Notes: a model not told the origin generated them from the sequence alone. DNA of 41,977 bases from a virus (UHGV-1356687); one strand, 5' to 3'. Counted from the first letter of the stretch, positions 20,046-39,771 are shown. A program made the numbers and translations.

Positions 20046-20272
20046 ATGGTTTCCAAGATATTTGGTGCATATCCACCAATTACAACAGGTTCATCATCAA
20101 CAATGTTTTTAAATACAACAGGTAGTGAACGGTATCCTTTTTCCATTAAATACTCTAACGCTTCTGGTTCTTCATCAACATTGTGTTCTTTATAATTAAC
20201 TCCTAACTCTTGTAATTTTCGTTTTGTCATTTTGCAAGGCATGCAATTGTTTTTAGTATATACTGTAATCAT
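20036..20272 (-). CDS. nrdH: NrdH-like glutaredoxin (redoxin)
   Basis: 78 aa. It has a CMPC redox motif near the N-terminus and a thioredoxin-fold length. It is the last gene of the leftward operon. Confidence 0.7.
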   Translation of the reverse strand: MITVYTKNNCMPCKMTKRKLQELGVNYKEHNVDEEPEALEYLMEKGYRSLPVVFKNIVDDEPVVIGGYAPNILETIVS

Positions 20273-20868
20273 TTAATTAACTCCTTTACATAAATATTTT
20301 TAGGTTCTTGTTCAATATAATAAGCTTCACCACTGTTTAAGGCATCAACTAATCGTTGCGCAAATGGTTTCAATTCACCTTTGTATTTTGTTCTTATTGC
20401 TTTATCATGATAGATTTTATCACCATATTTTATAACTTTAGTTTTAGTTGTCTTTCCTACTAACGTGAAGTTCGTTGCTTTGTAAATAATACCTTCATGA
20501 CCATGGTTAGGGTCTGCATAACTTACAATAGTTTTTACAGTTGTATTCTTACGTAACCACTTCAATGTTTTACCAATGAAGTACGATTCTGCATTACGCT
20601 TAGTATCATCAATCAAGCACAATCTACGTAGCTCTAAAACATCCTCTTTGTTTTCACCATACTTTTTCCACACATTAGCCATACCAAGTCCACCATATAT
20701 CATGGCACCAATTAATTCATCACCACAATATAGACCAAAACAGTATGATGATTGTAGACCATTTATAGAGTGTGTATAATGCCATTCTTCAATAAAATTC
20801 CGAATTACATTTCGTGCTACTGGTAAAACAGTATATTCCTTTACACTTTTAACTTCAAGTGGGTTCAT
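20269..20868 (-). CDS. hypothetical protein, possibly an acyltransferase-fold (GNAT/Mom-like) enzyme
   Basis: 199 aa with RBS. The segment YCFGLYCGDELIGAMIYGG...LELRRLCL is reminiscent of GNAT-type beta-strand/CoA-loop patterns. It is translationally coupled to nrdH. Confidence 0.3.
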   Translation of the reverse strand: MNPLEVKSVKEYTVLPVARNVIRNFIEEWHYTHSINGLQSSYCFGLYCGDELIGAMIYGGLGMANVWKKYGENKEDVLELRRLCLIDDTKRNAESYFIGKTLKWLRKNTTVKTIVSYADPNHGHEGIIYKATNFTLVGKTTKTKVIKYGDKIYHDKAIRTKYKGELKPFAQRLVDALNSGEAYYIEQEPKNIYVKELIK

Positions 20869-20930
20869 TTAAATTCCTCCTATTAGTTGATAGGTAAAGT
20901 ATAACACCTTACCTATCTTTTGTCAATAGT

Positions 20931-28041: not shown

Positions 28042-28290
28042 TTATTTTGCATATTTTGCGATAAGTTTAAAAACTTCTTGCGCCGTTTCAATATTTTCAA
28101 ATTTAACAAATCCACTTGGTACATGTTGCATCATTACTGAATAGTTATAATTTGTACTATACATATCACCAAACCCATTTGGATTGTACTTTACATCAAT
28201 AAGACAACCGTTTGGGAACAATTTTCTAAACATATGCATGTTATTCATCTTTTGCCATTCTCCGTTCTTCTCGTTTTTTAACTGAATCAT
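28042..28290 (-). CDS. hypothetical protein (82 aa)
   Basis: ORF in an operon. Confidence 0.4.
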   Translation of the reverse strand: MIQLKNEKNGEWQKMNNMHMFRKLFPNGCLIDVKYNPNGFGDMYSTNYNYSVMMQHVPSGFVKFENIETAQEVFKLIAKYAK

Positions 28291-28984
28291 AGGTGCGTTT
28301 CAACTCTGTTCCATCAAGTGGTGGGTTGCACCCAATTTGGTTTACATATTGTGACCATACCCATACTTCTTCATGTTCTAAGCCTGTAGCGAACAATTTG
28401 CCAATCATTTGCGTTATCCAGTTGTTTCGTCCTCCTTCATCACTTCCAGCGATAATATCACCTAACAGGTTTGCAGTCCATTTGCGTTCACGTTTTTTGT
28501 TTTGCTTTTGAATTGTTTTATCTGTGAAAATATCAAACCATTTTACAGGTAGGTCTGCAATTGGTGAATTGTCAATCACTTCATATTTTACACCGTCAAT
28601 AGTTGAACCCCACCCAACAATGTAGCGTCCATGTGTTTGGAAGTCAACACCTTCAACTTCCTTGTGGTTCTGAATGAATTGCACATCATTATATTTTTCA
28701 GGTAGGTTGTAATACAGATGAAGCCCACCACTTGGTGTCATAACTGTTTTAGTGTCTGGTAACTCAATATCATACTTTTCGCAAAACTCTTTGAGGTTAT
28801 CAGCACCACTAACACCATTATGAGTGTCAATATCAATTACTGCAATACCTGATAACTTACCAGTTAAAATACCATAGTTACCACCTTCTGCAACCCACTT
28901 CTTTACTTCTACTTTATCTTCACCATTAAATGAACCAGCAACTAACGGTGCTTTGCCATTCTTTTTAAGTCTTAATAGTTCCAT
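28241..28984 (-). CDS. primase-polymerase (Prim-Pol) N-terminal domain protein
   Basis: RBS aggagg before ATG 28984 (MELLRLKK...). The segment GGNYGILTGKLSGIAVIDIDTHNG is typical of the bifunctional DNA primase/polymerase N-terminal domain. Confidence 0.55.
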   Translation of the reverse strand: MELLRLKKNGKAPLVAGSFNGEDKVEVKKWVAEGGNYGILTGKLSGIAVIDIDTHNGVSGADNLKEFCEKYDIELPDTKTVMTPSGGLHLYYNLPEKYNDVQFIQNHKEVEGVDFQTHGRYIVGWGSTIDGVKYEVIDNSPIADLPVKWFDIFTDKTIQKQNKKRERKWTANLLGDIIAGSDEGGRNNWITQMIGKLFATGLEHEEVWVWSQYVNQIGCNPPLDGTELKRTYDSVKKREERRMAKDE

Positions 28985-28995
28985 ATTGTTTCCTC

Positions 28996-29184
28996 CTATG
29001 AACATGCTACAATCTTAGCTGTTTCTAAATTATAACTATTTACTTCAATAATAAGCACATCAAGTCCATGTATATTCTCCATCACTTCCTCCATATAATT
29101 TTCTGCTAACTCTTTGGTAGTGAAAACCTCTGATTGGTAAGCTAGTGTTCTAGCTTCAAAATCAATAATATTTACAATATACAT
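28996..29184 (-). CDS. hypothetical protein (62 aa)
   Basis: RBS agaggagg. It is the first gene after promoter P(29210-29245). Confidence 0.4.
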   Translation of the reverse strand: MYIVNIIDFEARTLAYQSEVFTTKELAENYMEEVMENIHGLDVLIIEVNSYNLETAKIVACS

Positions 29185-29209
29185 TTTAATTCCTCCTCTT
29201 ATCTTATGT

Positions 29210-29245
29210 ACCTACTATATCATAGGATATAGTAGTTGTCAACTA
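29210..29245 (-). promoter_or_regulatory. consensus sigma-A promoter with embedded 24-bp palindrome (palindrome-promoter copy 1)
   Basis: On the - strand: TTGACA, 17 bp, TATAGT. The palindrome CTACTATATCATAGGATATAGTAG (29212-29235) spans the spacer and -10. Confidence 0.6.
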
Positions 29246-29419
29246 TTTAATTGAATAAAATACTAAATTTTCTAATTTTAAGGTGAATGTTTCTGAACTA
29301 CCAAAACTAAGTTCTAAAAAACGTTGTGTGATATTTACACGTTTAACATTGGTAAATAAGATAGTTCTATTATCTTTACCAGCCATAAAGTTTACTGTTA
29401 CGTCTTTTAATTCTTTCAT
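29243..29419 (-). CDS. hypothetical small protein (59 aa), not in track
   Basis: RBS ggagga before ATG (MKELKDVTVNFMAGKD...). Confidence 0.3.
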   Translation of the reverse strand: MKELKDVTVNFMAGKDNRTILFTNVKRVNITQRFLELSFGSSETFTLKLENLVFYSIK

Positions 29420-29483
29420 TTTAATATATCCTCCATCATTTTATTAGTAAAATCTTTTCCATTTTTCTTTAGTCTTAAAAATT

Positions 29484-30224
29484 TCATGTTGTTTCCTCCT
29501 TTTGTTCTCCCATTATTCTGTATTTCGCTATGTTGAAATATTTTTCATCTAATTCAATACCAATAAATCTCCTATTAGTGTTCTTACACGCTACACCTGT
29601 TGAACCACTACCCATTGTAAAATCTAGCACAATATCGTTTTCATTTGTATAAGACTTAATTAACCACTCCAATAAATCAACAGGTTTCTGCGTTGGATGG
29701 AATCTATTTTTACGGATAGGTGTTGAGTATTTTCTAACAGTCTTTGGATATCTACCATCATAGTTAGTATTATTGCGTTCTAACTTTCCTGTGTTTGTAC
29801 TTACATCCCTCCCACCATATCTATTATATGATGAACCTTGGTCTTTCTGAACGTTGTATGTTGGTTGTTTTTCATAAAATACACTTACAATTTCATGTGA
29901 TGACAATGGTTTCTTGTTTGCCTGTGTAAAGTCTGTCCCTTGTTGCTTTTCCCAAATAATATCGTATCTAAAATTGTCAATATTACTCATGTTTAAATAT
30001 GTTGTAAAAGGTTGTTTCCCAAATAACAGTACTGGTGTATCTTTATTTGTTAACTTATTAATCTTTTCCCACATTTCTTTAAAAGGTATAGTGTTATCCC
30101 AAGAATATCTTTTTTTAGTTAGTATTCCATATGGTGGGTCAGTCAATACCATATCAACCTTTATGTTTCTATCAATTAACTCATCCATAGCAACTAATGC
30201 ATCTTTATTATATAATTCAAACAT
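29484..30224 (-). CDS. DNA methyltransferase, beta-class N6-adenine/N4-cytosine (orphan)
   Basis: 246 aa. Motif IV (LTDPPYG) is N-terminal and motif I (FTMGSGSTGVA) C-terminal. No adjacent restriction endonuclease is recognisable. Confidence 0.8.
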   Translation of the reverse strand: MFELYNKDALVAMDELIDRNIKVDMVLTDPPYGILTKKRYSWDNTIPFKEMWEKINKLTNKDTPVLLFGKQPFTTYLNMSNIDNFRYDIIWEKQQGTDFTQANKKPLSSHEIVSVFYEKQPTYNVQKDQGSSYNRYGGRDVSTNTGKLERNNTNYDGRYPKTVRKYSTPIRKNRFHPTQKPVDLLEWLIKSYTNENDIVLDFTMGSGSTGVACKNTNRRFIGIELDEKYFNIAKYRIMGEQKEETT

Positions 30225-30252
30225 ATTTAACTTCCTCCCTTTATCTTATGTA

Positions 30253-30288
30253 TCTACTATATCATGTGATATAGTAGTTGTCAATACT
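30253..30288 (-). promoter_or_regulatory. consensus promoter with embedded palindrome (copy 2)
   Basis: TTGACA, 17 bp, TATAGT. Palindrome CTACTATATCATGTGATATAGTAG 30255-30278. Confidence 0.6.
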
Positions 30289-31583
30289 TATTTTAAAATA
30301 TTTTCAATATCTTCATTAGTAAAGTCTTTACCATTTGTTACTGTTTCAAAAATCTTTTTCTCCGTTGGTGTTTCAGGTACAATGTGATAATAAAGTGGTT
30401 TCTTTGTTTGACCATAACGGTCTGTGCGTGCCTTGGATTGTTCATAGTTGATTGATTCTAAAGGCATTGAATTGTAAATTGTCACATTTGCAATAACAAA
30501 ATCATTAATGCCTGTAGAAGCGGATTTGTAGTGTGCTAACACAACACCGTTGTCTTTACCTTTAAATACTTTTAAGTCTTTGCTAGCGCCATTATATTGA
30601 CTATATGGACGTTTTAACTTGTCTAATACTTGTTTCAACATTTCAAGTTCCACATTGTAATTATAAAATATAACTATCCGTTCGTTGTTATGTGTTTCTA
30701 AAATAGCCTGTAAACGCTCAAACGGTTCTTTACTTACTTGTTTATTGATTCCTAATAAGAAACCATGGCTCACACAACGCATTGCATTAAATAGCTTACT
30801 ACTATTGTCTAATTCAATTACTTCGCCGTTATCCGCTTTGTACATGCGGTGTTTTTTCAACTTAGCATACATAGCTGGTTTTTTAGTCTTATATACATAA
30901 TCTTCTGGAAAGTAGTCTTTATCACGTGTGAAACGCACTGCGCATTGGTCAATCATTTGTTTTAATAAATGCTCGTTCTGATAACCTACAATGTCCATAA
31001 ATCGCATAGAACCCATTTGTCGCATTTGCTTAATAACAAATAGTTGCTCAAACTCTTTTTTAGGCTTGCGGAATACATTTAGCATATATAACTGTGGGTA
31101 GTAGTTCTCTAGCTTCCCATTACTAACTGGTGTTGCGGTTAACAGTCTTACATAAGGTGTTTTCTTACATAATTTCATAGCAAACTTAGTTACTTTAGAA
31201 GAGCTAACACCTACTTTGTGGGCTTCGTCAATGATAATGAACGTATCTTTATCAACCCATTTCAATAATTCAGTCACACGCCAGCTACTTTCAAATGAGA
31301 TTGCAACTCGTTTTGCATCTGCTAATAACTCTTTATTTTTCTTTGTACCCTTGTTAAGTGTTGTAATTTCAATATTCATCTTAGCTCCATCTTCTGCAAA
31401 GTCTGCAACTTTAGGTGCTAAACAGATAACTAATAACTTACTGCACCCAGATTGCAAGTAGGCTCCTAATGCAGTGAATGTCTTACCTGTTCCAGCGTCA
31501 GATAAATCGTAAGGGTGTGTATTCCATTTTTCAATACCTTCAATTTGCGTTGGTAATAGTTCAATTTTTCCAATCTTAGTCAT
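30288..31583 (-). CDS. SNF2-family (DEAH-box) helicase
   Basis: RBS ggtggaag before ATG 31583 (MTKIGKIELLPTQ...). Walker A is DAGTGKT and motif II is IIDEAHKV. LLTATP and a C-terminal helicase domain are also present. The track start at 31673 lacks an RBS. Confidence 0.75.
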   Translation of the reverse strand: MTKIGKIELLPTQIEGIEKWNTHPYDLSDAGTGKTFTALGAYLQSGCSKLLVICLAPKVADFAEDGAKMNIEITTLNKGTKKNKELLADAKRVAISFESSWRVTELLKWVDKDTFIIIDEAHKVGVSSSKVTKFAMKLCKKTPYVRLLTATPVSNGKLENYYPQLYMLNVFRKPKKEFEQLFVIKQMRQMGSMRFMDIVGYQNEHLLKQMIDQCAVRFTRDKDYFPEDYVYKTKKPAMYAKLKKHRMYKADNGEVIELDNSSKLFNAMRCVSHGFLLGINKQVSKEPFERLQAILETHNNERIVIFYNYNVELEMLKQVLDKLKRPYSQYNGASKDLKVFKGKDNGVVLAHYKSASTGINDFVIANVTIYNSMPLESINYEQSKARTDRYGQTKKPLYYHIVPETPTEKKIFETVTNGKDFTNEDIENILK

Positions 31584-31977
31584 ATAGTACTTCCACCTTA
31601 TCATCTTTAATATCTGGTAAATATGGTTGTTCATAATTGAAATAAATATCATCTGCACCATAGTACACTGCACTTTCCATGTTATCCAAATAAAGTAATA
31701 GGTCCTCTAAATCATCAAGCGTATCTCTTAATAGTAAACCATATCCACCAGCACATCTAACTTCTTGTAAGTATCTAATTTGTAATGGGTCTGGCTGGTA
31801 GTTCCCTGTTTTAAGCTCTAATGCAATGAAGTAACCACTATAACACGCTTCAATATCTGCACGTCCCACACGGTCATATATGGTTGCTGTGTTAACATTT
31901 ACAACCGCTCCTTTTGATTTCAAGTAATCTACTACTTCTTTACTAAATTTAGCTTCTTTTTTCACGTGCTGAACCAC
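31576..31977 (-). CDS. VRR-NUC domain nuclease
   Basis: 133 aa. The PD-(D/E)xK-like core ...GRADIEACYSGYFIALELKTG... is typical of VRR-NUC. Confidence 0.6.
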   Translation of the reverse strand: MVQHVKKEAKFSKEVVDYLKSKGAVVNVNTATIYDRVGRADIEACYSGYFIALELKTGNYQPDPLQIRYLQEVRCAGGYGLLLRDTLDDLEDLLLYLDNMESAVYYGADDIYFNYEQPYLPDIKDDKVEVLYD

Positions 31978-32182
31978 CTTTTTTATTACCTTGTAACATA
32001 TTTGTCAATAGTTCAATGGCTTTTTCTACATCAATATTATTTTGAGAAAATACACCTAACATTGCTAATACTGTGTATGCTGCATATTTTTCTATGTCAT
32101 CTTGTGAAATCCCTTTACTTCTGAAATCATTTTCCATTTCACTTAAAATATTATCAATTGCAATAATGCGTTCTGTTTTCAT
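31949..32182 (-). CDS. hypothetical protein (77 aa)
   Basis: ORF with RBS ggagaggaag. Confidence 0.4.
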   Translation of the reverse strand: MKTERIIAIDNILSEMENDFRSKGISQDDIEKYAAYTVLAMLGVFSQNNIDVEKAIELLTNMLQGNKKGGSAREKRS

Positions 32183-32184
32183 TT

Positions 32185-32394
32185 TTATTCTTCCTCTCCA
32201 AAAACTTCTTCTTTTAATAGTTCAATATGTCTTTCTGTTGATTCGTAATATTCTTCTAAACATAACAGATATAATAGTACACCTTCTTTAACAAAGTTGT
32301 CAATTTCAGTTTGTGTTACACCTTTGTCTATGAATTCTTCTTGCATTAAATATGTTCGTGCGTCTAATCGTTCAATCATTTCTAAGTTTGTCAT
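32185..32394 (-). CDS. hypothetical protein (69 aa)
   Basis: ORF with an identical RBS junction. Confidence 0.4.
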   Translation of the reverse strand: MTNLEMIERLDARTYLMQEEFIDKGVTQTEIDNFVKEGVLLYLLCLEEYYESTERHIELLKEEVFGEEE

Positions 32395-32396
32395 TT

Positions 32397-32606
32397 TTAT
32401 TCTTCCTCTCCAATTACTAGTTCAATTCCGCCCCATGATTCATTGTAACTGATATTTAATACCTTTGTCAATTCGTTATACTTATTAAATAATCGTGCTA
32501 CTGATGTATCACTTGTTGTGTCAATTACTAGTGCAGTCAAACCATTTGATTCTTTCACTACTAAAAAATGGCTATCAATCACTTCATATGCTTGTAATAA
32601 ATTCAT
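32397..32606 (-). CDS. hypothetical protein (69 aa)
   Basis: ORF with RBS aggaggataac. Confidence 0.4.
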   Translation of the reverse strand: MNLLQAYEVIDSHFLVVKESNGLTALVIDTTSDTSVARLFNKYNELTKVLNISYNESWGGIELVIGEEE

Positions 32607-32607
32607 T

Positions 32608-32770
32608 TTAGTTATCCTCCTTGAATGTTTGAGTTGCTAAGAACGTTAATACGAATGATATAGACCATGCTATCATTACAGCATCCCTTGAACCTGTGAA
32701 TACGATTGTAAAGATACCTACTAAAAATGCCACCAATACAGCTGTTAAAACTTCTAAATTTTCATTCATC
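32608..32770 (-). CDS. small membrane protein (53 aa, 2 TM), not in track
   Basis: RBS ggaggacaaataag before ATG 32770 (MNENLEVLTAVLVAFLVGIFTIVF...). Confidence 0.35.
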
Positions 32771-33043
32771 TTATTTGTCCTCCAATTGTTTAATTTTTTC
32801 GTCTAATTCTTTAATTAACTGTTTATTATCTAATGTTTTTGTGATACTTGAAACATCAATTCCTGATACTACTTTGTACTCTAAGATAATATCTTGTTGA
32901 CGTTCGTTCAATTCTTTGTATAAGTGTAATTCTTGTTTAGCTTCATTCAATTTCTGCTTGTTTAAGTTGTTTGCCAACATTGCTGTACTTCCTGAAAAAC
33001 TCAATCCTACTGCCAATCCAATGATTAATCCTTTATGTTTCAT
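32771..33043 (-). CDS. secreted/membrane-anchored coiled-coil protein (signal peptide, no lipobox)
   Basis: 90 aa with RBS aggagg. The N-terminus is MKHKGLIIGLAVGLSFSGSTAMLA. The remainder is coiled coil. Confidence 0.45.
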   Translation of the reverse strand: MKHKGLIIGLAVGLSFSGSTAMLANNLNKQKLNEAKQELHLYKELNERQQDIILEYKVVSGIDVSSITKTLDNKQLIKELDEKIKQLEDK

Positions 33044-33091
33044 TTATTTATTCCTCCTAATTGATTATATACTTAGTATAAATGATTGTCT

Positions 33092-33535
33092 TTATTTTGT
33101 CAAGTGTTTTGGTAAATTAATTTTTAAATTTTTGTCATATCGCCTTGGGTCAAGTGTCTTGTGAACGTCATCTACTTTGTTTAGATAGCTTGTAATTACT
33201 TTACCACTTATTAGTGACACCACAATACACTGTACTTCTTTGTTTTTTGAATAGTGTGAACGTAGTAAAATGCGCTTGTCTGCTCCTGTTTCGTTGTACT
33301 CTACAATTGTACTATTTAACATGGTTTTCATTGTCATTTCATATGAAAATTTAGTTTCACCATTTCTTATTTTATCTTGTAAGTGAAAACCAATCTTGAT
33401 ACCACGTTTTAGCCATAAATCTTTTACACGTTCTCTAGCGTTATATACTTGTTCAACTTCCTTGTGTGTAAAGTGTGAAGCGTGTTTCTTTACTTGTCCT
33501 TGCGTTTTCTTTACTGTTCCAATTTGAAAGTCCAT
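33092..33535 (-). CDS. hypothetical protein (147 aa), basic
   Basis: RBS agaggagg. It is the first gene after promoter 33560-33596. Confidence 0.45.
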   Translation of the reverse strand: MDFQIGTVKKTQGQVKKHASHFTHKEVEQVYNARERVKDLWLKRGIKIGFHLQDKIRNGETKFSYEMTMKTMLNSTIVEYNETGADKRILLRSHYSKNKEVQCIVVSLISGKVITSYLNKVDDVHKTLDPRRYDKNLKINLPKHLTK

Positions 33536-33559
33536 TTCATATCCTCCTCTTAACTTATG

Positions 33560-33596
33560 AATTAAGTATATCAGTTGGGGCTGAACTTGTCAACCC
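33560..33596 (-). promoter_or_regulatory. consensus promoter TTGACA-17-TATACT with hairpin over the -35 box
   Basis: On the - strand: TTGACAagttcagccccaactgaTATACT. GGGGctgaacttgtcaaCCCC forms a hairpin. An identical copy is at 38055-38090. Confidence 0.6.
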
Positions 33597-33607
33597 CTTT
33601 TCTGATT

Positions 33608-33796
33608 TTATTTTAAGTTTTCTAATACTGTTTCAGTTAGTAAAATCACATCTAACATTTTTTCTAGTCTATCGTTTAGTTCATGTCCTAGTTCTTTGTT
33701 TCCGTTGTCGTATGCTTCAATCATTTGTTCTTTTAACTCCTCATATCTTTTATTTAGTCTTTCTAATTTCGCTTCATATCTTTGTTTTGTTGTCAT
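33608..33796 (-). CDS. hypothetical coiled-coil protein (62 aa)
   Basis: ORF with RBS agaggagg. Confidence 0.4.
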   Translation of the reverse strand: MTTKQRYEAKLERLNKRYEELKEQMIEAYDNGNKELGHELNDRLEKMLDVILLTETVLENLK

Positions 33797-33821
33797 GTTT
33801 GTTTCCTCCTCTTAACTTATG

Positions 33822-33858
33822 AACTAAGTATATCATGAGAAAAAAAGAAAGTCAACTG
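33822..33858 (-). promoter_or_regulatory. promoter TTGACT-17-TATACT
   Basis: On the - strand: TTGACTttctttttttctcatgaTATACT. The -35 lies in the loop of the hairpin aagaaagt...actttctt. Confidence 0.5.
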
Positions 33859-33884
33859 TTTTAGTTAACTTTCTTTAAAATATT

Positions 33885-35465
33885 TTAAAAAATATTATCT
33901 GTTTCAGTAAAGTTGTTAGCCCATTTAATATTGGTTAATACATATTGTGGACGTCCATTAACTCTTTTTTTAACTCTGTTTAATACAATGTTCTGCGATT
34001 TGCGTTGTAGTTCTGGCACAAACTTACGAGCTGAAACGGTCATTAGTCCTTCATTAACTAACATATCGTTATATGCTTCTAATAATTCATTTGTTGGGAT
34101 AAATGAGTTTTCATCTTCCACGAACTCAATTTCGTTCATATCAATAAAGTTAGCCATTGTGTCATTTCCTTGGATAAAGGCATCACGCAATTTATTTGCA
34201 TTCTCACTGGTCCAGAAGTGTCCTTTGGTTTCTCCATTTAGTCCAAATAGTACATTTCTATATTGTTGTAAACAGTAGCTGATAAACTCTGATTTTTCTT
34301 CATATGTGAAATTCTTTGAACGTTCCAGCCACATTGAATCTGTGGGGTTATCTCTTCCCATTGTCTTATTAAACGGTAATGTGATAATACGGCGCAAGAA
34401 ACCATGTGAGGTGTCTGAAAACGTAGGCATGTTATTAGTTGTGAAAATCATTAGTGCGTAGTTGGTAAATGTGAACTTGTTAATACCTTTGTACTCTGCA
34501 CTCATAACATCATTACCTGATAGTGTTTTCAGTGTACCTGTTTGTTTAATATGCTGTGCTGGCATATCTGTTTCAATATTCACCATTTTACCAAATAATT
34601 GAGAGCTTGCGAATTTGTCATTATTACCTGACAAGCTAGCTAGTGTTGCATGACTTGTATTTGATTTTCCTACTAGCTCCTCAATAAATGCCATAACGTG
34701 AGATTTACCGTTACTACCTTCACCAGTTGCAAACACCATTGCTTGCGGGTCTTGGTTGCGGTAGAAAATACGTCCAATCAATTGAAATAGTGTTTTTGCG
34801 TCCTCTTCTAAAATATACTCAATCCATTCAGCAACGATATTGTGTTTAGGGTTCTCAATATAATCATATTCAATTCTTGTTGTTTGGTAGTCCTCTTTTA
34901 CCGTTGGTTTTAATGTGTCCTCTTTAAAGCGATATGTGCCATTTTTAAAGGCTATTTTGTTTGGGTCCATTTTGTCATTAAATGGTAAGTTAGCACCAGA
35001 AGCAAGTGCATTTTTTGCCATTCTTTGAACTGCATTTCTAAATTGATTAGCAACCTTTGCATTTTCTGCGTAGTGTGGTGTATAGACCATCATAAATTCA
35101 TTGTAAAGCTTTTGCCATAAACGAGCTTCTAAATTGTCCTCTGATACCTCATAGATTTTTGTGTCATGGTTGTAAACCACTGGTAAACCAATTGTGGAAC
35201 TTGCATGCACTGGTAATACCTTAGCCATGTGAACTGCCAAGGCTTCTGCATTTAATCCATCATAACTTGGTTCTGGTCGTTGTGGTTCTGCATTCTTAGC
35301 CGCATCTCCATTTTTGAAGTCAACTTCCCACTCTTTGTGGTCCTTTTCATACTCCTTTAGTGCTTTGATATATTGCTTGCTAGGTGTCAAAGTCTTTTCA
35401 AGCGTGCTGATAAAGCTTAATTCAATTGGTTGGTCATATTCTACTTTTTGTAATTCATTTACCAT
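33885..35465 (-). CDS. primase-helicase, P4/D5 type (D5_N + SF3 NTPase)
   Basis: 526 aa. The Walker A block ATGEGSNGKSHV is typical of phage/plasmid primase P4-family C-terminal helicase. Walker B is LMIFTTN. Confidence 0.75.
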   Translation of the reverse strand: MVNELQKVEYDQPIELSFISTLEKTLTPSKQYIKALKEYEKDHKEWEVDFKNGDAAKNAEPQRPEPSYDGLNAEALAVHMAKVLPVHASSTIGLPVVYNHDTKIYEVSEDNLEARLWQKLYNEFMMVYTPHYAENAKVANQFRNAVQRMAKNALASGANLPFNDKMDPNKIAFKNGTYRFKEDTLKPTVKEDYQTTRIEYDYIENPKHNIVAEWIEYILEEDAKTLFQLIGRIFYRNQDPQAMVFATGEGSNGKSHVMAFIEELVGKSNTSHATLASLSGNNDKFASSQLFGKMVNIETDMPAQHIKQTGTLKTLSGNDVMSAEYKGINKFTFTNYALMIFTTNNMPTFSDTSHGFLRRIITLPFNKTMGRDNPTDSMWLERSKNFTYEEKSEFISYCLQQYRNVLFGLNGETKGHFWTSENANKLRDAFIQGNDTMANFIDMNEIEFVEDENSFIPTNELLEAYNDMLVNEGLMTVSARKFVPELQRKSQNIVLNRVKKRVNGRPQYVLTNIKWANNFTETDNIF

Positions 35466-35489
35466 TGTTATTCCTCCTAATATCTTATG

Positions 35490-35526
35490 ACATTAATATA
35501 CCATCTAAAAAAGAGAAAGTCAACTG
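35490..35526 (-). promoter_or_regulatory. promoter TTGACT-17-TATATT
   Basis: On the - strand: TTGACTttctcttttttagatggTATATT. Hairpin gagaaagt...actttctc. Confidence 0.5.
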
Positions 35527-35559
35527 TTTTATTTAACTTTCTCCCTTATCATAACATAT

Positions 35560-35757
35560 TTAATTTAGATAATGTTTCTCAAATAGGTATATACCAATAG
35601 CAATCATGATAGTTAGTAATGCACCTAATCCAAGTACAACCCATGTAATTGGCTTCAATACCATTAGAACTGAAATTACAATCATTGCTGAAATCACTAT
35701 TCCACTTGCTGCCCCTACCAATACAAGTGCCACTAATAATACATCTAATTTACTCAT
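35560..35757 (-). CDS. small membrane protein (65 aa, 2 TM)
   Basis: Hydrophobic ORF at the operon end. Confidence 0.45.
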   Translation of the reverse strand: MSKLDVLLVALVLVGAASGIVISAMIVISVLMVLKPITWVVLGLGALLTIMIAIGIYLFEKHYLN

Positions 35758-35993
35758 TTTTCCACCTCATCTAGTTTTTTTAATAAACGTTTTTCATTCC
35801 ATACATTTACAATATCACCAATATACTTAAGGTTGTATAAGGCTCTAAATTTATATGCTAATGTGTTTTGAACATCTTTATATTCATATTGATACATTAG
35901 TGGTACATTATTTTTTAATACAACTGTTACTGTAGCCCCATTATATGGTTCTTCAAATTCATAGTAACGTTCTGTGTACATGTCTACTCTCAT
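35754..35993 (-). CDS. hypothetical protein (79 aa)
   Basis: ORF. Its upstream junction is GAGGAGGAAACAAAATGA. Confidence 0.4.
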   Translation of the reverse strand: MRVDMYTERYYEFEEPYNGATVTVVLKNNVPLMYQYEYKDVQNTLAYKFRALYNLKYIGDIVNVWNEKRLLKKLDEVEK

Positions 35994-36205
35994 TTTGTTT
36001 CCTCCTTATGAAATTTATAAACATCATGTAATCGTTCACGTAATTCACTTGATTGTTCCATAGTAATAACATCACTCATGCTAAGTCCCAAAATTACACC
36101 TTGGATAAATTTCATACCAGCGTGGTTGTGTTCTGCGTTTTCGTCATACCCTTCAATCATTTCTAAAACATGTTCAATTGCACTGATATTACTCATTCTA
36201 CTCAT
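35990..36205 (-). CDS. hypothetical protein (71 aa)
   Basis: ORF ending ...EETK* with the same coupling junction. Confidence 0.4.
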   Translation of the reverse strand: MSRMSNISAIEHVLEMIEGYDENAEHNHAGMKFIQGVILGLSMSDVITMEQSSELRERLHDVYKFHKEETK

Positions 36206-36429
36206 TTTGTTTCCTCCTCATCTAGTGTAATGTCTAAGTCATAAATTATTCCTGTGTAATCTTCATTAATCAGTTGTAAATGAAATGACTTAACTTTAGA
36301 ATCATAGTATTCTTTTAACTCTTTGTTGTCCGTGTGTACATCTGCTATTTTTACAATGTCAACACCTTTGAATATATAACAGGTATCAATATCATTTTCA
36401 ATTGAATATAGTAAATCTTCTACAGTCAT
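36202..36429 (-). CDS. hypothetical protein (75 aa)
   Basis: ORF ending ...EEETK*. Confidence 0.4.
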   Translation of the reverse strand: MTVEDLLYSIENDIDTCYIFKGVDIVKIADVHTDNKELKEYYDSKVKSFHLQLINEDYTGIIYDLDITLDEEETK

Positions 36430-36644
36430 TTTGTTTCCTCCTCAAATTGTTGTTTCTGTTCTTTGGTTGCTTTTGTGTCACACATGGTGGCTTGCTTGTG
36501 TATCCATGTTTTAGAAACCATGTGTATTTCATTGTCTAATAATGTGATAAAATAACCACGTGTGTCTATCTGGTCAATTCTATAAATATTTAATCCATCT
36601 GTTGAAGCCCATATTGAGCCAATAACCTTTACTGAATCACTCAC
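36426..36644 (-). CDS. hypothetical protein (72 aa)
   Basis: ORF ending ...EEETK*. Confidence 0.4.
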   Translation of the reverse strand: MSDSVKVIGSIWASTDGLNIYRIDQIDTRGYFITLLDNEIHMVSKTWIHKQATMCDTKATKEQKQQFEEETK

Positions 36645-36865
36645 TATGCGTCCTCCAATACATATAGGATTGAATCAAGTGGAATGGTGATAAATGTGGG
36701 TTGCATTTCTCCATCAATTTCAATATCTTCTGGTTTTTCCAATTTCAATAGTTTTTCATCATTTTCAACCGCTTGTTCATACATTACAAGAATTGGTTCT
36801 TCTGTGTATAAGTTGAAAAGTTCATTATTTGTTAAGCAAATATAATAATTCGTTTTGGTTGTCAT
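36644..36865 (-). CDS. hypothetical protein (73 aa; start at ATG 36865 rather than track 36892)
   Basis: RBS gggagg before MTTKTNYY. Confidence 0.4.
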   Translation of the reverse strand: MTTKTNYYICLTNNELFNLYTEEPILVMYEQAVENDEKLLKLEKPEDIEIDGEMQPTFITIPLDSILYVLEDA

Positions 36866-37005
36866 TATTTTAACCTCCCACATTTTTTGCATTTTTCATG
36901 TGCGCCTAAATTATATGATTTGTAAATGCCAAATGGTTCGTAATCATGTATACAAAAGTTTTCACGTAATACCTCTTTACACCATAATATAAAATTTCCT
37001 ATCAT
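36865..37005 (-). CDS. small Cys-rich protein (46 aa; C..C...CKKC, zinc-ribbon-like), not in track
   Basis: ATGA-coupled to the upstream ORF. Confidence 0.3.
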   Translation of the reverse strand: MIGNFILWCKEVLRENFCIHDYEPFGIYKSYNLGAHEKCKKCGRLK

Positions 37006-37163
37006 TGTTGTTCCTCCACTCGTATAATTTCAATTTGTTCTGGTCTAAAACCTGATTCATCTAAAATTTTCATAGCTGCACTAGCATGACTATTCGCAGT
37101 TACATGTCTTACCTCCACAAGTGTATCGTATCTTGTGCGCCATAAAACTTCATATTCTTTCAT
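37002..37163 (-). CDS. hypothetical small protein (53 aa), not in track
   Basis: RBS aggagg before ATG 37163. Confidence 0.3.
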   Translation of the reverse strand: MKEYEVLWRTRYDTLVEVRHVTANSHASAAMKILDESGFRPEQIEIIRVEEQQ

Positions 37164-37279
37164 TCTTATTCCTCCTAGTCCTCAATATACTTGATAATGT
37201 TGTAAGTACCCCAGATTCCAATTGTTACAAATACTAAACCAAATACTGCCATGTTAGTTCCCTCCTTAGTCATCTTATA

Positions 37280-37316
37280 CACCTACTATACCATCAGATA
37301 TAGTAGGTGTCAAGTG
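37280..37316 (-). promoter_or_regulatory. consensus promoter with embedded palindrome (copy 3)
   Basis: TTGACA, 17 bp, TATAGT-like. Palindrome CCTACTATACCATCAGATATAGTAGG 37282-37307. Confidence 0.55.
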
Positions 37317-37318
37317 TT

Positions 37319-38029
37319 TTATTCAAATTCTTTGATACTTTCAATAAGGTTGTTAAGTTTGCGTGCCTTTTTGCTTAAGTTAATTGCCTGTTGCTCCAAG
37401 CGGTCACGCTTTTTGAATAAGTGTTCTGCTTGCGTTGTTAGTGAGTCAATTTTAGCTTGTACACTAGACTTCAAGTCTATAGTTGTTTTAAAAGTTGGTG
37501 TTTCTTCTTTTTCAACTAATTCATATTGTCTTTCTGAAATGAAATAGTATGGATATTCATCATTTAAATAAATATAGCAATTATCAGTTAAAGGACTCTT
37601 ATATTCTACAATTTTATATGTTTTACCAATTTCTAAACCAAGTCTTTTGTCAATGTTATGTGGTCCTAAATATTTTGTAATTTTAGCATATTTTGTCATT
37701 TCTTTTTCCTCCAATTCATTAATTCGTTGTTCATATTGTAAAACAATTTTGTCAACTTTTTCTAGTTCTGATTTTGTTTTAATAAAGTTTTGAAACCATT
37801 CTTTGTATTTTTCCTTGTATGTGTCACGTTCAAGTTTTAGGTTGTTTATATCTCTATTCTTGTCTATCTTAATCTCTCTAATCATTTCTCTTAACTCGTT
37901 TATCTCCTCGTAAGCTCTGTCAAGGTTGTTTGCGTGGTGAATACATCTTCCTTGCCATTTATCCCTATTATCTACTAACTCATTGTAGTTCTTAATCAAT
38001 AAATCATGCTTTTTCTTTGATACTAACAT
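37319..38029 (-). CDS. hypothetical coiled-coil protein (236 aa)
   Basis: RBS aaggagg. It is highly helical and K/E-rich. Confidence 0.45.
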   Translation of the reverse strand: MLVSKKKHDLLIKNYNELVDNRDKWQGRCIHHANNLDRAYEEINELREMIREIKIDKNRDINNLKLERDTYKEKYKEWFQNFIKTKSELEKVDKIVLQYEQRINELEEKEMTKYAKITKYLGPHNIDKRLGLEIGKTYKIVEYKSPLTDNCYIYLNDEYPYYFISERQYELVEKEETPTFKTTIDLKSSVQAKIDSLTTQAEHLFKKRDRLEQQAINLSKKARKLNNLIESIKEFE

Positions 38030-38054
38030 TTTATATCCTCCCTTTAATTTATAT

Positions 38055-38090
38055 ATTTAGTATATCAGTTGGGGCTGAACTTGTCAACCC
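38055..38090 (-). promoter_or_regulatory. consensus promoter TTGACA-17-TATACT with hairpin (second copy)
   Basis: A 50-bp sequence identical to 33555-33605. Confidence 0.6.
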
Positions 38091-38105
38091 CTTTTCTGAT
38101 TTTTA

Positions 38106-38240
38106 TTAAATTAATTCAGCTGTTTTGTATGATTCACCATTAAGATACATGTAAATGTCATTACCTAATTGAATCACTTCTAATTTGTTACCTAACATTT
38201 CTTGTAATTTCACTTCTGCATTGATTTGTTCTTTTGTCAT
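38106..38240 (-). CDS. hypothetical small protein (44 aa), not in track
   Basis: RBS ggagg before ATG 38240. Confidence 0.3.
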   Translation of the reverse strand: MTKEQINAEVKLQEMLGNKLEVIQLGNDIYMYLNGESYKTAELI

Positions 38241-38275
38241 TTTTAATTCCTCCAATTTGTTTGTTGTTATCTTAT

Positions 38276-38312
38276 GTACCTACTATAACATGTGCTATAG
38301 TAGGTGTCAACA
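38276..38312 (-). promoter_or_regulatory. consensus promoter with embedded palindrome (copy 4)
   Basis: Palindrome CCTACTATAACATGTGCTATAGTAGG 38278-38303 plus TTGACA. Confidence 0.55.
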
Positions 38313-38820: not shown

Positions 38821-38987
38821 AGTTCTTTAATAGTTTCAATCATTAAATCTTGTTCAAGTTCAACTTCTTTACATACATGAATTAAGCCAGCCATTAACAT
38901 GTAAATCACTTCCGCTTCATCTGCGTGGTTACTATTGATACTCAACTCTTTGTTTTCATCAAGTGTTAGTAATACTTTGTTTGTCAT
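38802..38987 (-). CDS. hypothetical protein (61 aa)
   Basis: ORF. Confidence 0.35.
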   Translation of the reverse strand: MTNKVLLTLDENKELSINSNHADEAEVIYMLMAGLIHVCKEVELEQDLMIETIKELWGRVE

Positions 38988-39394
38988 TACTCATTACCTC
39001 CTTTAAACACTTCATCATATAATTCTTGGATTGCTTCACGTTTTACTTTTAACATTGCAATTTGTGCTGATATTACATTACTTGGCTTTCCTATCAAATG
39101 TCCTGACAAATGACCAATATCCATATTGTATTGAATAAGTGTTCGTTGAAATGTTTTTCTAATCTTAGTGAGTTCATCAATGTTGACAATCTTAAAATTT
39201 GAATCCCAAAATTGATTTAGGTTGTGTTCTAAGTCAAATGGTGTTGTTCCGTATTCTAATATGTCACCTTCATCACATTTAATATAGAAACCTGTTTCAT
39301 TCTTTAGAATGTCATACTCTTTACCTTCTGTGTAAAATGGTTCTTGTGGGTGGCTACTTGTGCATTTCATTTTTAAATCTTTGTAGTCTATCAT
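38987..39394 (-). CDS. hypothetical protein, paralogue B of a tandem pair
   Basis: Its N-terminal ~70 aa align with 39391-39771 (LKMKCT...EPFYTEG..GFYIKCDEG...FWDSNF versus LKIKCT...EPFTLGR..GLYYIKDDSG...FWHSHF). Confidence 0.45.
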   Translation of the reverse strand: MIDYKDLKMKCTSSHPQEPFYTEGKEYDILKNETGFYIKCDEGDILEYGTTPFDLEHNLNQFWDSNFKIVNIDELTKIRKTFQRTLIQYNMDIGHLSGHLIGKPSNVISAQIAMLKVKREAIQELYDEVFKGGNE

Positions 39395-39771
39395 TTTAGG
39401 TCCTCCTTAATTCTAATTAGTGTTACAAAATCATCTAAGCTAATATTTAGCTCTTCCTGATTATTATAAATGTAATCAACAGTTTTGTCAAGTAAAATCT
39501 GTACCTTTTCTTTTGGTGTACGTTCTTTCTTTTGTTTTGGTTCTGGTGGGTTGCATACTGTAAAATGTGAATGCCAAAAGTCATTTAAGTCTCTTACTAG
39601 TCCGTCAATTACTGGTATATCGTCAATATGTCTATATGGTACATTACGTCCTGAATCATCTTTAATGTAATACAGACCAGTAGTTGCGCTTTCGCAATAA
39701 ATAGTATATGGTCTTCCTAATGTGAATGGTTCGCCTTCTGCTACGTATGTGCATTTAATTTTTAATGTCAT
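39391..39771 (-). CDS. hypothetical protein, paralogue A of a tandem pair
   Basis: See the paralogue above. RBS gggagg. Confidence 0.45.
   Translation of the reverse strand: MTLKIKCTYVAEGEPFTLGRPYTIYCESATTGLYYIKDDSGRNVPYRHIDDIPVIDGLVRDLNDFWHSHFTVCNPPEPKQKKERTPKEKVQILLDKTVDYIYNNQEELNISLDDFVTLIRIKEDLK

Follow-up and report, generated by a model that had tools for sequence, protein, structure and literature searches.

In T4-type phages, promoter-early stem-loops (PeSLs) combine strong sigma-70 early promoters and an A/T-rich upstream stretch with a stem-loop that lies between the promoter boxes or overlaps either of them, its position defining subclasses (Arbiol et al. 2010, PMC2839356). These cassettes lie between an upstream gene's stop codon and the next gene's ribosome-binding site, are abundant before ORFans, and mediate indels and replacements among relatives (PMC2839356; Comeau et al. 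2014, PMC4122927). The stems of PeSLs are frequently polyG/polyC, one of them has been shown to terminate transcription, and a genome carries ~50 cassettes. Here we describe a repeated promoter cassette in UHGV-1356687, a 41,977-bp stretch of viral DNA (hereafter, the window) that is the complete genome of an Efquatrovirus, a lytic siphovirus of Enterococcus faecalis. Its structural and lysis genes read rightward from 1 to ~20 kb, and some 45 replication and small early genes read leftward from ~40.4 to 20 kb. Four of the leftward promoters, which we call class A, share an inverted repeat that spans the spacer and the -10 box. This feature is real, conserved, and nonrandom, and we tentatively read the four sites as copies of one mobile, PeSL-like early-promoter/stem-loop cassette, a reading that we consider quite possible rather than probable.

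The likeness to PeSLs lies in repeated small intergenic cassettes that join an A/T-rich stretch, a consensus host promoter, and a stem-loop at the promoter boxes; here too, they stand before small unknown or accessory genes and at the junctions of indels and replacements. The two also differ. PeSLs belong to T4-like myoviruses of Gram-negative bacteria, whereas the present cassettes belong to a siphovirus of a Gram-positive Enterococcus and use sigma-A promoters; there are about a dozen of them per genome as opposed to ~50; and the class A stem is A/T-rich, built from an inverted -10 box, with invariant arms and no U tract. Since the T4-type scope of PeSLs covers neither Efquatrovirus nor Kochikohdavirus, a second phage group that enters below, we limit our claim to a PeSL-like way of working: by analogy, the cassette would act as a PeSL does without being one by descent, as it is found outside the T4-type myoviruses.

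The Arc operator of phage P22 lies in Pant between its -35 box and its -10 box, and phage P1 carries scattered C1 operators. Minute hairpin-loop inversions and templated mutation at quasi-palindromes are known from chloroplast noncoding DNA and from Escherichia coli mutagenesis. We also compared the p4 sites of phage phi29 as promoter-overlapping regulator sites (PMC1904284) and, as far as the citing paper describes them, the RNase III processing hairpins in the early mRNA of Bacillus phage SP82 (Panganiban and Whiteley 1983, cited in PMC4838370). No description of the promoters of Efquatrovirus or Kochikohdavirus phages was found in the literature searched.

Results

Four leftward promoters share an inverted repeat over the spacer and -10 box

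The pattern CTACTATA-N8-TATAGTAG matches the window exactly at four sites, 29212-29235 (P1), 30254-30277 (P2), 37283-37306 (P3), and 38280-38303 (P4), against an expectation of 0.05 matches, and none of 100 shuffled sequences reached four. A first-pass annotation of the sequence had reported four shared copies, and these are confirmed; its coordinates were right for the first copy and off by one or two bases for the other three. Allowing three mismatches added a single, unrelated site, and each half-site occurs once more in the whole genome. On the minus strand, all four copies read TTGACA, a 17-nucleotide (nt) spacer, and TATAGT, just as the annotation had it, with TGn before the -10 box. These promoters match the sigma-70-type consensus at 11 of 12 positions in addition to the extended -10 (TGn), and they carry a Gram-positive -16 TRTG-like element. 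The 24-bp perfect palindrome that had been described is present in none of the four. The core arms measure 8 bp. In copies 1 and 2 they lengthen to 10 bp and leave a 4-nt loop, in copy 3 they reach 12 bp (ACACCTACTATA/TATAGTAGGTGT), and in copy 4 they reach 10 bp. Likewise, the TTGTCAA said to trail every copy follows copies 1 and 2, and copies 3 and 4 read GTGTCAA.

The upstream arm occupies spacer positions -28 to -21, and the downstream arm (-12 to -5) comprises the -10 hexamer and the AG after it; in other words, the spacer repeats the -10 box and two further bases exactly, in inverted form. With this inverted copy in the spacer, any nucleic acid strand spanning the cassette could fold into a stem-loop of a predicted 10 to 14 bp. 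The centers of the 8-bp arms are 16 bp apart, or ~1.5 helical turns, and the inner TATA blocks are 12 bp apart. The RNA hairpins predicted for class A range from -11.7 to -23.7 kcal/mol (z from -1.8 to -6.6), and Rfam gave no match at gathering score anywhere in the window. The stem is A/U-rich, with G-C in two of eight core pairs, and its tail, GGUACAUAAG, has no U tract, which makes termination doubtful and weak at best. The sole terminator-like match among the class A copies is on the opposite strand of copy 3.

Conservation reaches beyond the palindrome, over a block that runs from -35 to +9 and includes the leader from +1 to +9, ATAAGATAA, which class A has in common with the nonpalindromic promoter classes described below. 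The cassette as a whole fills the gap from the stop codon of the upstream gene to the ribosome-binding site of the next gene, and it consists of an A/T-rich upstream stretch, a consensus sigma-A promoter, and the short conserved leader. In class A, the distance from the upstream stop codon to the -35 box is 0, 3, 5, or 19 nt, and GGAGG and ATG follow 30 to 45 nt downstream. A leader motif, CATAAG(A/T)TAAG, is found just 5' of the GGAGG ribosome-binding site behind all strong leftward promoters (e.g., 29207-29193 and 33560-33545); it is present in classes A, B, and C and in the Kochikohdavirus copies.

Cassettes head different genes and coincide with homology breakpoints

Across phages, the same cassette heads at least 10 different first genes. 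In the window, the first gene behind a class A cassette is accessory in three of four cases, accessory meaning absent from at least two of three compared genomes. Phage phiSHEF2 is ~97% identical to the window over 28-40 kb. Relative to it, window positions 29465-30289, which hold cassette P2 and an N6/N4 DNA methylase gene, are an insertion, and at P1 homology stops at 29190, at the ribosome-binding site, with the downstream gene replaced. Among 36 related loci, 17 of 87 clusters of homology breakpoints fall inside cassettes, which make up 8% of the region (P = 5e-4), an enrichment that may partly reflect the intergenic position of the cassettes. Upstream-flank and leader types have been reassorted in many combinations. 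One related contig (L066) carries reciprocal flank/leader chimeras around an extra small gene, a pair that requires crossovers inside the conserved core.

The arms are invariant and the loop occurs in both orientations

The class A arms are invariant in ~60 copies from related phages (53 distinct 121-nt sequences with 21 distinct cores), and the cassette is found in essentially all Efquatrovirus-like contigs. The invariant upstream arm bears out the conservation well beyond the two hexamers that had been noted at first pass. When IMG/VR was scanned with the bare palindrome, 58 sites in a TTGACA context were returned together with unrelated chance sites; two scans in which the -35 box, one arm, and the leader were fixed and the other arm was left free recovered the same 45 sites each. 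Over 39 related loci, no copy has a mismatch in the -35 box or in either arm. Among the 53 distinct versions, the only variable positions are -29, those of the loop (-20 to -16 and -13), -4, -2, and -1, with T(-15)G(-14) retained and the +1 to +9 leader nearly fixed. The spacer positions taken up by the upstream arm vary in other promoter classes and clusters, and -8 varies in class C. Invariance of the arm and of G(-8) and A(-6)G(-5), at positions that vary elsewhere, implies a constraint beyond ordinary polymerase contacts.

No compensated arm variants of the form CTAGTATA/TATACTAG were found, and those of the form CTATTATA/TATAATAG were found only in unrelated contigs. Positions -29 and -4, at the outer end of the stem, show no consistent pairing with each other, the commonest type being mismatched. 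The relaxed pattern ACTATA-N8-TATAGT fits ~19 unrelated promoters, with a slight, nonsignificant excess of extended pairing. We set aside a palindrome in contig L101 as a chance match inside a repeated coding motif, and also Staphylococcus phage matches to the promoter query, which reflect generic TTGACA, TATAAT, and ribosome-binding-site similarity without the palindrome. Plasmids gave no palindrome match.

At orthologous promoters, the loop falls into four families that are each seen in both orientations (TCTGATGG/CCATCAGA, TCACATGG/CCATGTGA, TCCTATGA/TCATAGGA, and TCACATGA/TCATGTGA). The loops of the window lie at 29220-29227, 30262-30269, 37291-37298, and 38288-38295, and their orthologous sites are in contigs L080, L067, L106, L077, L100, L065, and L087. 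In the flipped forms TCATAGGA and CCATCAGA, the extended -10 loses its TG on the sense strand, and every one of the four flipped forms puts a TG on the antisense strand. The downstream flank alternates between GTAC and GTGT, its bases changing jointly; GTGT together with C(-29) produces a 12-bp palindrome that uses the ACA of the -35 box, and the variant CCGAACGG is a near-perfect 24-mer. Judged from the sequences, these loop flips and joint flank switches are marks of inversion and templated mutation at DNA hairpins. As in known hairpin-loop inversions, close relatives differ in the orientation of the loop, and complementarity is raised by mutations in the flanks; the difference is that here the changes lie within a functional promoter, where a flip moves the extended -10 TG to the other strand.

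Stem-loops overlap other strong leftward promoters

For seven of the 12 strong promoters that read leftward, folding falls below the 5th percentile of same-strand control windows (Mann-Whitney p = 5e-4). Hairpin-containing promoters of other architectures, to which the first-pass annotation had also pointed, are real, and their stem-loops differ in position: spacer and -10 box in class A (four copies in the window), -35 box in classes B and C (two copies each), and bracketing the -10 box in P20926. Such placements are among those given for the subclasses of PeSLs (PMC2839356). The different architectures had led the annotation to propose at least two putative temporal classes in the leftward module. 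Class B, at 38059..38101 on the minus strand, reads TTGACA-17-TATACT with its -35 box within a GGGGTTGA/TCAGCCCC hairpin (-17 kcal/mol) and drives a gene of 236 amino acids (aa) at 37319-38029; the second copy, at 33565..33607 (minus strand), drives a 147-aa gene at 33092-33535, and the two cores, 38059-38087 and 33565-33593, are identical. Class C, at 33827..33876 (minus strand), has a hairpin that resembles a terminator, AAAGAAAGTTAAC/GTTGACTTTCTTT, and a T run after it; the 3' arm of the hairpin contains -35 TTGACT, and the -10 box is TATACT (-17.7 kcal/mol). Its second copy, at 35495..35545 (minus strand), lies upstream of a D5-type primase gene at 33885-35465; the promoter cores are 33827-33855 and 35495-35523, both with the -35 box within the 3' arm. 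P20926, at 20880..20926 (minus strand), reads TTGACA-17-TATACT, and a 9-bp inverted repeat, GATAGGTAA/TTACCTATC, brackets its -10 box (-17.7 kcal/mol) and is retained in three variants.

IME-EFm1 (L115), a more distant relative from Enterococcus faecium, lacks the CTACTATA palindrome; two of its promoters, with -35 boxes at 32524 and 22627 on the minus strand, have G/C-rich palindromes that fill the spacer (ACACCCC/GGGGTGT and ACACCTC/GAGGTGT) and are followed by a T-rich -10 region, and they resemble promoter-embedded terminators. A promoter of contig L015, TTGACACCTCCTATATAATATGTTATAGT, is absent from the window and is a diverged relative of the cassette with CACCTCCTAT in its spacer. This CACCTCCTAT is exactly complementary to the promoter's own ribosome-binding region, ATAGGAGGTG, ~30 nt downstream, and masking of the ribosome-binding site would be possible only in read-through RNA.

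Genomic setting of the class A cassettes

All four class A cassettes are on the minus strand. Cassette P1 (29185..29242) has its -35 box at 29242-29237, the palindrome at 29235-29212, -10 TATAGT at 29219-29214, and the leader ATAAGATAAGAGGAGG; its predicted RNA hairpin is the weakest, at -11.7 kcal/mol. The stop codon of a 58-aa gene abuts the -35 box, and downstream come the ATG at 29184 of a 62-aa accessory open reading frame (ORF) and then a Prim-Pol gene at 28241-29005. Cassette P2 (30225..30284; -35 box 30284-30279, palindrome 30277-30254, -10 box 30261-30256; -12.0 kcal/mol, z -4.3) precedes a 246-aa N6/N4 DNA methyltransferase gene at 29484-30224. This methyltransferase is carried on the cassette-bounded insertion and is absent from phiSHEF2, G01, and MF-DL; together with a Mom-like protein at 20269-20868, it gives the window two DNA-modification genes, both on the minus strand.

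Cassette P3 (37253..37313; -35 box 37313-37308, core palindrome 37306-37283, 12-bp arms 37310-37279, -10 box 37290-37285) has the strongest hairpin, at -23.7 kcal/mol (z -6.6). Directly behind it lies a 25-aa hydrophobic ORF at 37175-37252 (minus strand), MAVFGLVFVTIGIWGTYNIIKYIED, which is 92 to 100% conserved in phiSHEF2, G01, and MF-DL and has no annotation in phiSHEF2; a run of small early genes follows. Cassette P4 (38241..38310; -35 box 38310-38305, palindrome 38303-38280, -10 box 38287-38282; -17.5 kcal/mol, z -4.6) precedes a 44-aa accessory ORF at 38106-38240.

Cassettes are shared with unrelated Kochikohdavirus myoviruses

Kochikohdavirus myoviruses (EFLK1 and phiEF17H), which are unrelated to Efquatrovirus, carry one class A copy whose arms are exact, and ~20 further Kochikohdavirus records show 84% identity to the promoter query. 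The Kochikohdavirus copy adjoins homologues of window genes 37319-38029 and 36865-37005. The class B cassette, including the hairpin over its -35 box, recurs almost unchanged in Kochikohdavirus Riverwalk (L237 270-320), and thus more than one cassette class is common to sipho- and myoviruses of E. faecalis. In addition, a 135-aa early protein of the window has 58%-identical homologues in Kochikohdavirus. The sharing between the two groups looks like module exchange and not convergence.

The product of 36865-37005 (minus strand) is a 46-aa Cys-rich protein, possibly a zinc ribbon, with 54% identity to Kochikohdavirus L236 1847-1987; it lies downstream of a class A cassette in both phage groups. 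Three paralogous early proteins, at 39391-39771, 38987-39394, and 37319-38029 (minus strand), share a phrog_3523/16833 domain, and the 135-aa protein is one of the three. Unrelated viral contigs carry fully symmetric promoters (L241 6256-6293, L242 10787-10824, and L253 1615-1643 on the minus strand) with TTGACA on both strands and arms of up to 14 bp; those of L241 and L242 lie between divergent genes, one of which encodes an SNF2-type helicase.

Search for a cognate regulator

From the conservation, the first-pass annotation had concluded that a dimeric DNA-binding regulator occupies all four promoters or that they are the target of a phage-specific sigma or anti-sigma factor. In 40 proteins of the leftward region, searches of Pfam and PHROGs recognized no helix-turn-helix (HTH), ribbon-helix-helix, sigma, or anti-sigma domain; neither sigma-70 region 2 or 4 nor any known anti-sigma domain was found, although a small protein of novel fold or a host protein could escape these searches. 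Three observations weaken the step from conservation to a regulator: the nonsymmetric +1 to +9 leader is almost as conserved as the arms, the variable positions are the loop and stem flanks, where templated mutation and inversion act, and stem-loops of unrelated sequence overlap most other strong promoters of the genome.

The absence of the 46-aa Cys-rich protein from G01, which has three copies of the palindrome, speaks against it as the cognate regulator. A protein of MF-DL annotated as "transcriptional regulator" has no clear counterpart in the window. A 181-aa first-gene product is absent from phiSHEF2, G01, and MF-DL and has no solved relative. For the 135-aa protein shared with Kochikohdavirus, an AlphaFold model (predicted local distance difference test score, 89) consists of a small beta domain and a long helical hairpin and has no significant match among solved structures. 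IME-EFm1 lacks the palindrome but also all of the small early genes, so co-occurrence in that phage cannot discriminate. Finally, a scan of bacterial genomes used the bare palindrome, a query that gave at least 120 scattered matches and is too unspecific to speak on host sites; among the matches listed, none was in Enterococcus and none in a TTGACA context, which with this query is uninformative. A more specific pattern for such a scan is TTGACANCTACTATA-N8-TATAGTAG.

Discussion

If the class A sites are PeSL-like cassettes, as we tentatively suggest, the stem-loop would form in read-through RNA from upstream promoters, where by analogy it might insulate, attenuate, or mark a processing or stability point between early transcription units; pausing or protection of RNA 3' ends may be further roles. 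RNA started at the cassette's own promoter would lack the 5' arm. The near-identical core of ~45 bp could at the same time serve as a recombination foothold through which early gene modules are shuffled. As described in the paper that cites the SP82 work, the hairpins of that phage offer a partial parallel, in that a lytic phage which also infects a Gram-positive bacterium has conserved stem-loops separating the cistrons of its early polycistronic RNA; the stems predicted here are just 10 to 14 bp, and the element doubles as a promoter.

Several points weigh against the PeSL-like reading, in addition to the intergenic position of the cassettes noted above. No attenuation, processing, or recombination event has been seen directly. 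The class A stem lacks the G/C-rich stem and following U tract of intrinsic terminators, and in having no canonical terminator form it is unlike both class C and the G/C-rich PeSL stems. Five upstream-arm positions could take transitions and still pair in RNA, as G-U, and no such variant was seen; the absence of these tolerated variants fits sequence-specific recognition better than simple RNA pairing. The invariance of G at -8 and AG at -6/-5, bases that vary in other classes, points the same way. Moreover, the inverted repeat of the P39830-type promoter is lost in relatives, so selection does not act on every promoter hairpin here, and the idea that all of them are selected was dropped.

The main rival, possible but doubtful as we judge it to be, is an operator: a dimeric sequence-specific protein (a small unrecognized phage protein or a host regulator) would bind the arms, centered at -16.5, and keep RNA polymerase off every class A promoter at once, for instance as a shut-off after the early phase. 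Such a protein would explain the absolute, uncompensated conservation of the arms better than RNA pairing does. The arms are fixed throughout the ~60 copies while the center and flanks are free to vary, scans that omit either arm recover the same 45 sites, no G-U-type or compensated variants occur within the family, and the nonessential G(-8) and A(-6)G(-5) are not only fixed but mirrored upstream. A variable, orientation-free center is typical of an uncontacted operator spacer, and in an unrelated contig, L240, a similar palindrome at the same promoter position adjoins a divergent Cro/C1-type HTH gene. The embedded operators of P22 Arc, P1 C1, and phi29 p4 likewise place a dyad over the core promoter and repeat one site at several promoters. 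They differ from the present case in that here no cognate protein was found in the searches described above, which turned up no DNA-binding domain, the syntenic 46-aa protein being absent from G01 and the shared 135-aa protein having no significant match among solved structures; that identity is absolute, not degenerate; and that the phage is strictly lytic, without a recognizable switch region. Complete identity at 16 positions over 60 sites is stricter than in usual operator sets and equal to that of the -35 box, which suggests copying of a cassette over site-by-site selection. A spacing of ~1.5 helical turns between arm centers may also count against an operator, and the model would leave the other promoter-embedded stem-loops unexplained. 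That an unrecognized small dimeric DNA-binding protein, of the phages or of E. faecalis, co-regulates the mobile early promoters of two unrelated Enterococcus phage families is, in our estimate, unlikely.

The symmetry might instead have no function of its own, a chance quasi-palindrome near the -10 box having been perfected by hairpin-templated strand switching and spread by cassette copying and recombination. Loop inversions and the joint GTAC/GTGT changes are signatures of templated mutation, the whole -35 to +9 block is nearly invariant well beyond the arms, cassette chimeras indicate frequent exchange between copies, and two diverged relatives (CCTATTATA.. and CCTCCTATA..) are still good-looking promoters without symmetric arms. 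We nonetheless regard this account as improbable: across 21 distinct cores with diverged loops there are neither symmetric double changes nor decayed arms, the Kochikohdavirus copy has exact arms as well, and the upstream arm is more conserved than the same positions of classes B, C, and other clusters. A bidirectional promoter, in which the upstream arm is a plus-strand TATAGT -10 box that sends antisense RNA into the 3' end of the upstream gene, or the relic of a symmetric divergent promoter, is harder still to credit and seems quite improbable. It finds precedent in the fully symmetric versions of unrelated contigs, TTGACAACTATTATAGCACATGATATAATAGTTGTCAA between the divergent genes of L241 and L242 and, in L253, 14-bp arms that take in both -35 boxes, and some encouragement in a promoter-like plus-strand TATACA-17-TATAGT at P3 (37276-37304) and in TGn before the plus-strand TATAGT in two of the four copies. 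Yet the plus-strand hexamers that would serve P1, P2, and P4 as -35 boxes agree with TTGACA at only two of six positions, a mirrored TTGACA is missing from every class A copy, the plus strand has no gene to be expressed, and a lone -10 box would tolerate TATAAT or TATACT where the arm is invariant. As for a phage-specific sigma or anti-sigma target, the extended conservation is all that speaks for it. A near-perfect host sigma-A consensus with an extended -10 and a -16 TRTG-like element makes a phage sigma factor unnecessary, no corresponding domain was recognized among the 40 leftward proteins, and we consider this proposal of the first-pass annotation extremely improbable.

When Enterococcus phages are isolated for therapy, Efquatroviruses and Kochikohdaviruses are among the most frequent finds. 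From its sequence, the cassette offers a compact, very strong, and portable E. faecalis promoter, and it may be a predictable recombination hot spot to weigh in phage engineering. Were the repeat an operator, newly acquired genes would fall under the same control by arriving with the cassette. If the PeSL-like reading is true, gene shuffling by promoter/stem-loop cassettes would not be a peculiarity of T4 but would be convergent or general in lytic phages, those that infect Gram-positive bacteria among them. Accessory genes (the DNA methylase, for example) would then be gained with ready-made expression signals, and the same process would explain the mosaic early regions of these phages and the crossing of modules between sipho- and myoviruses of one host.

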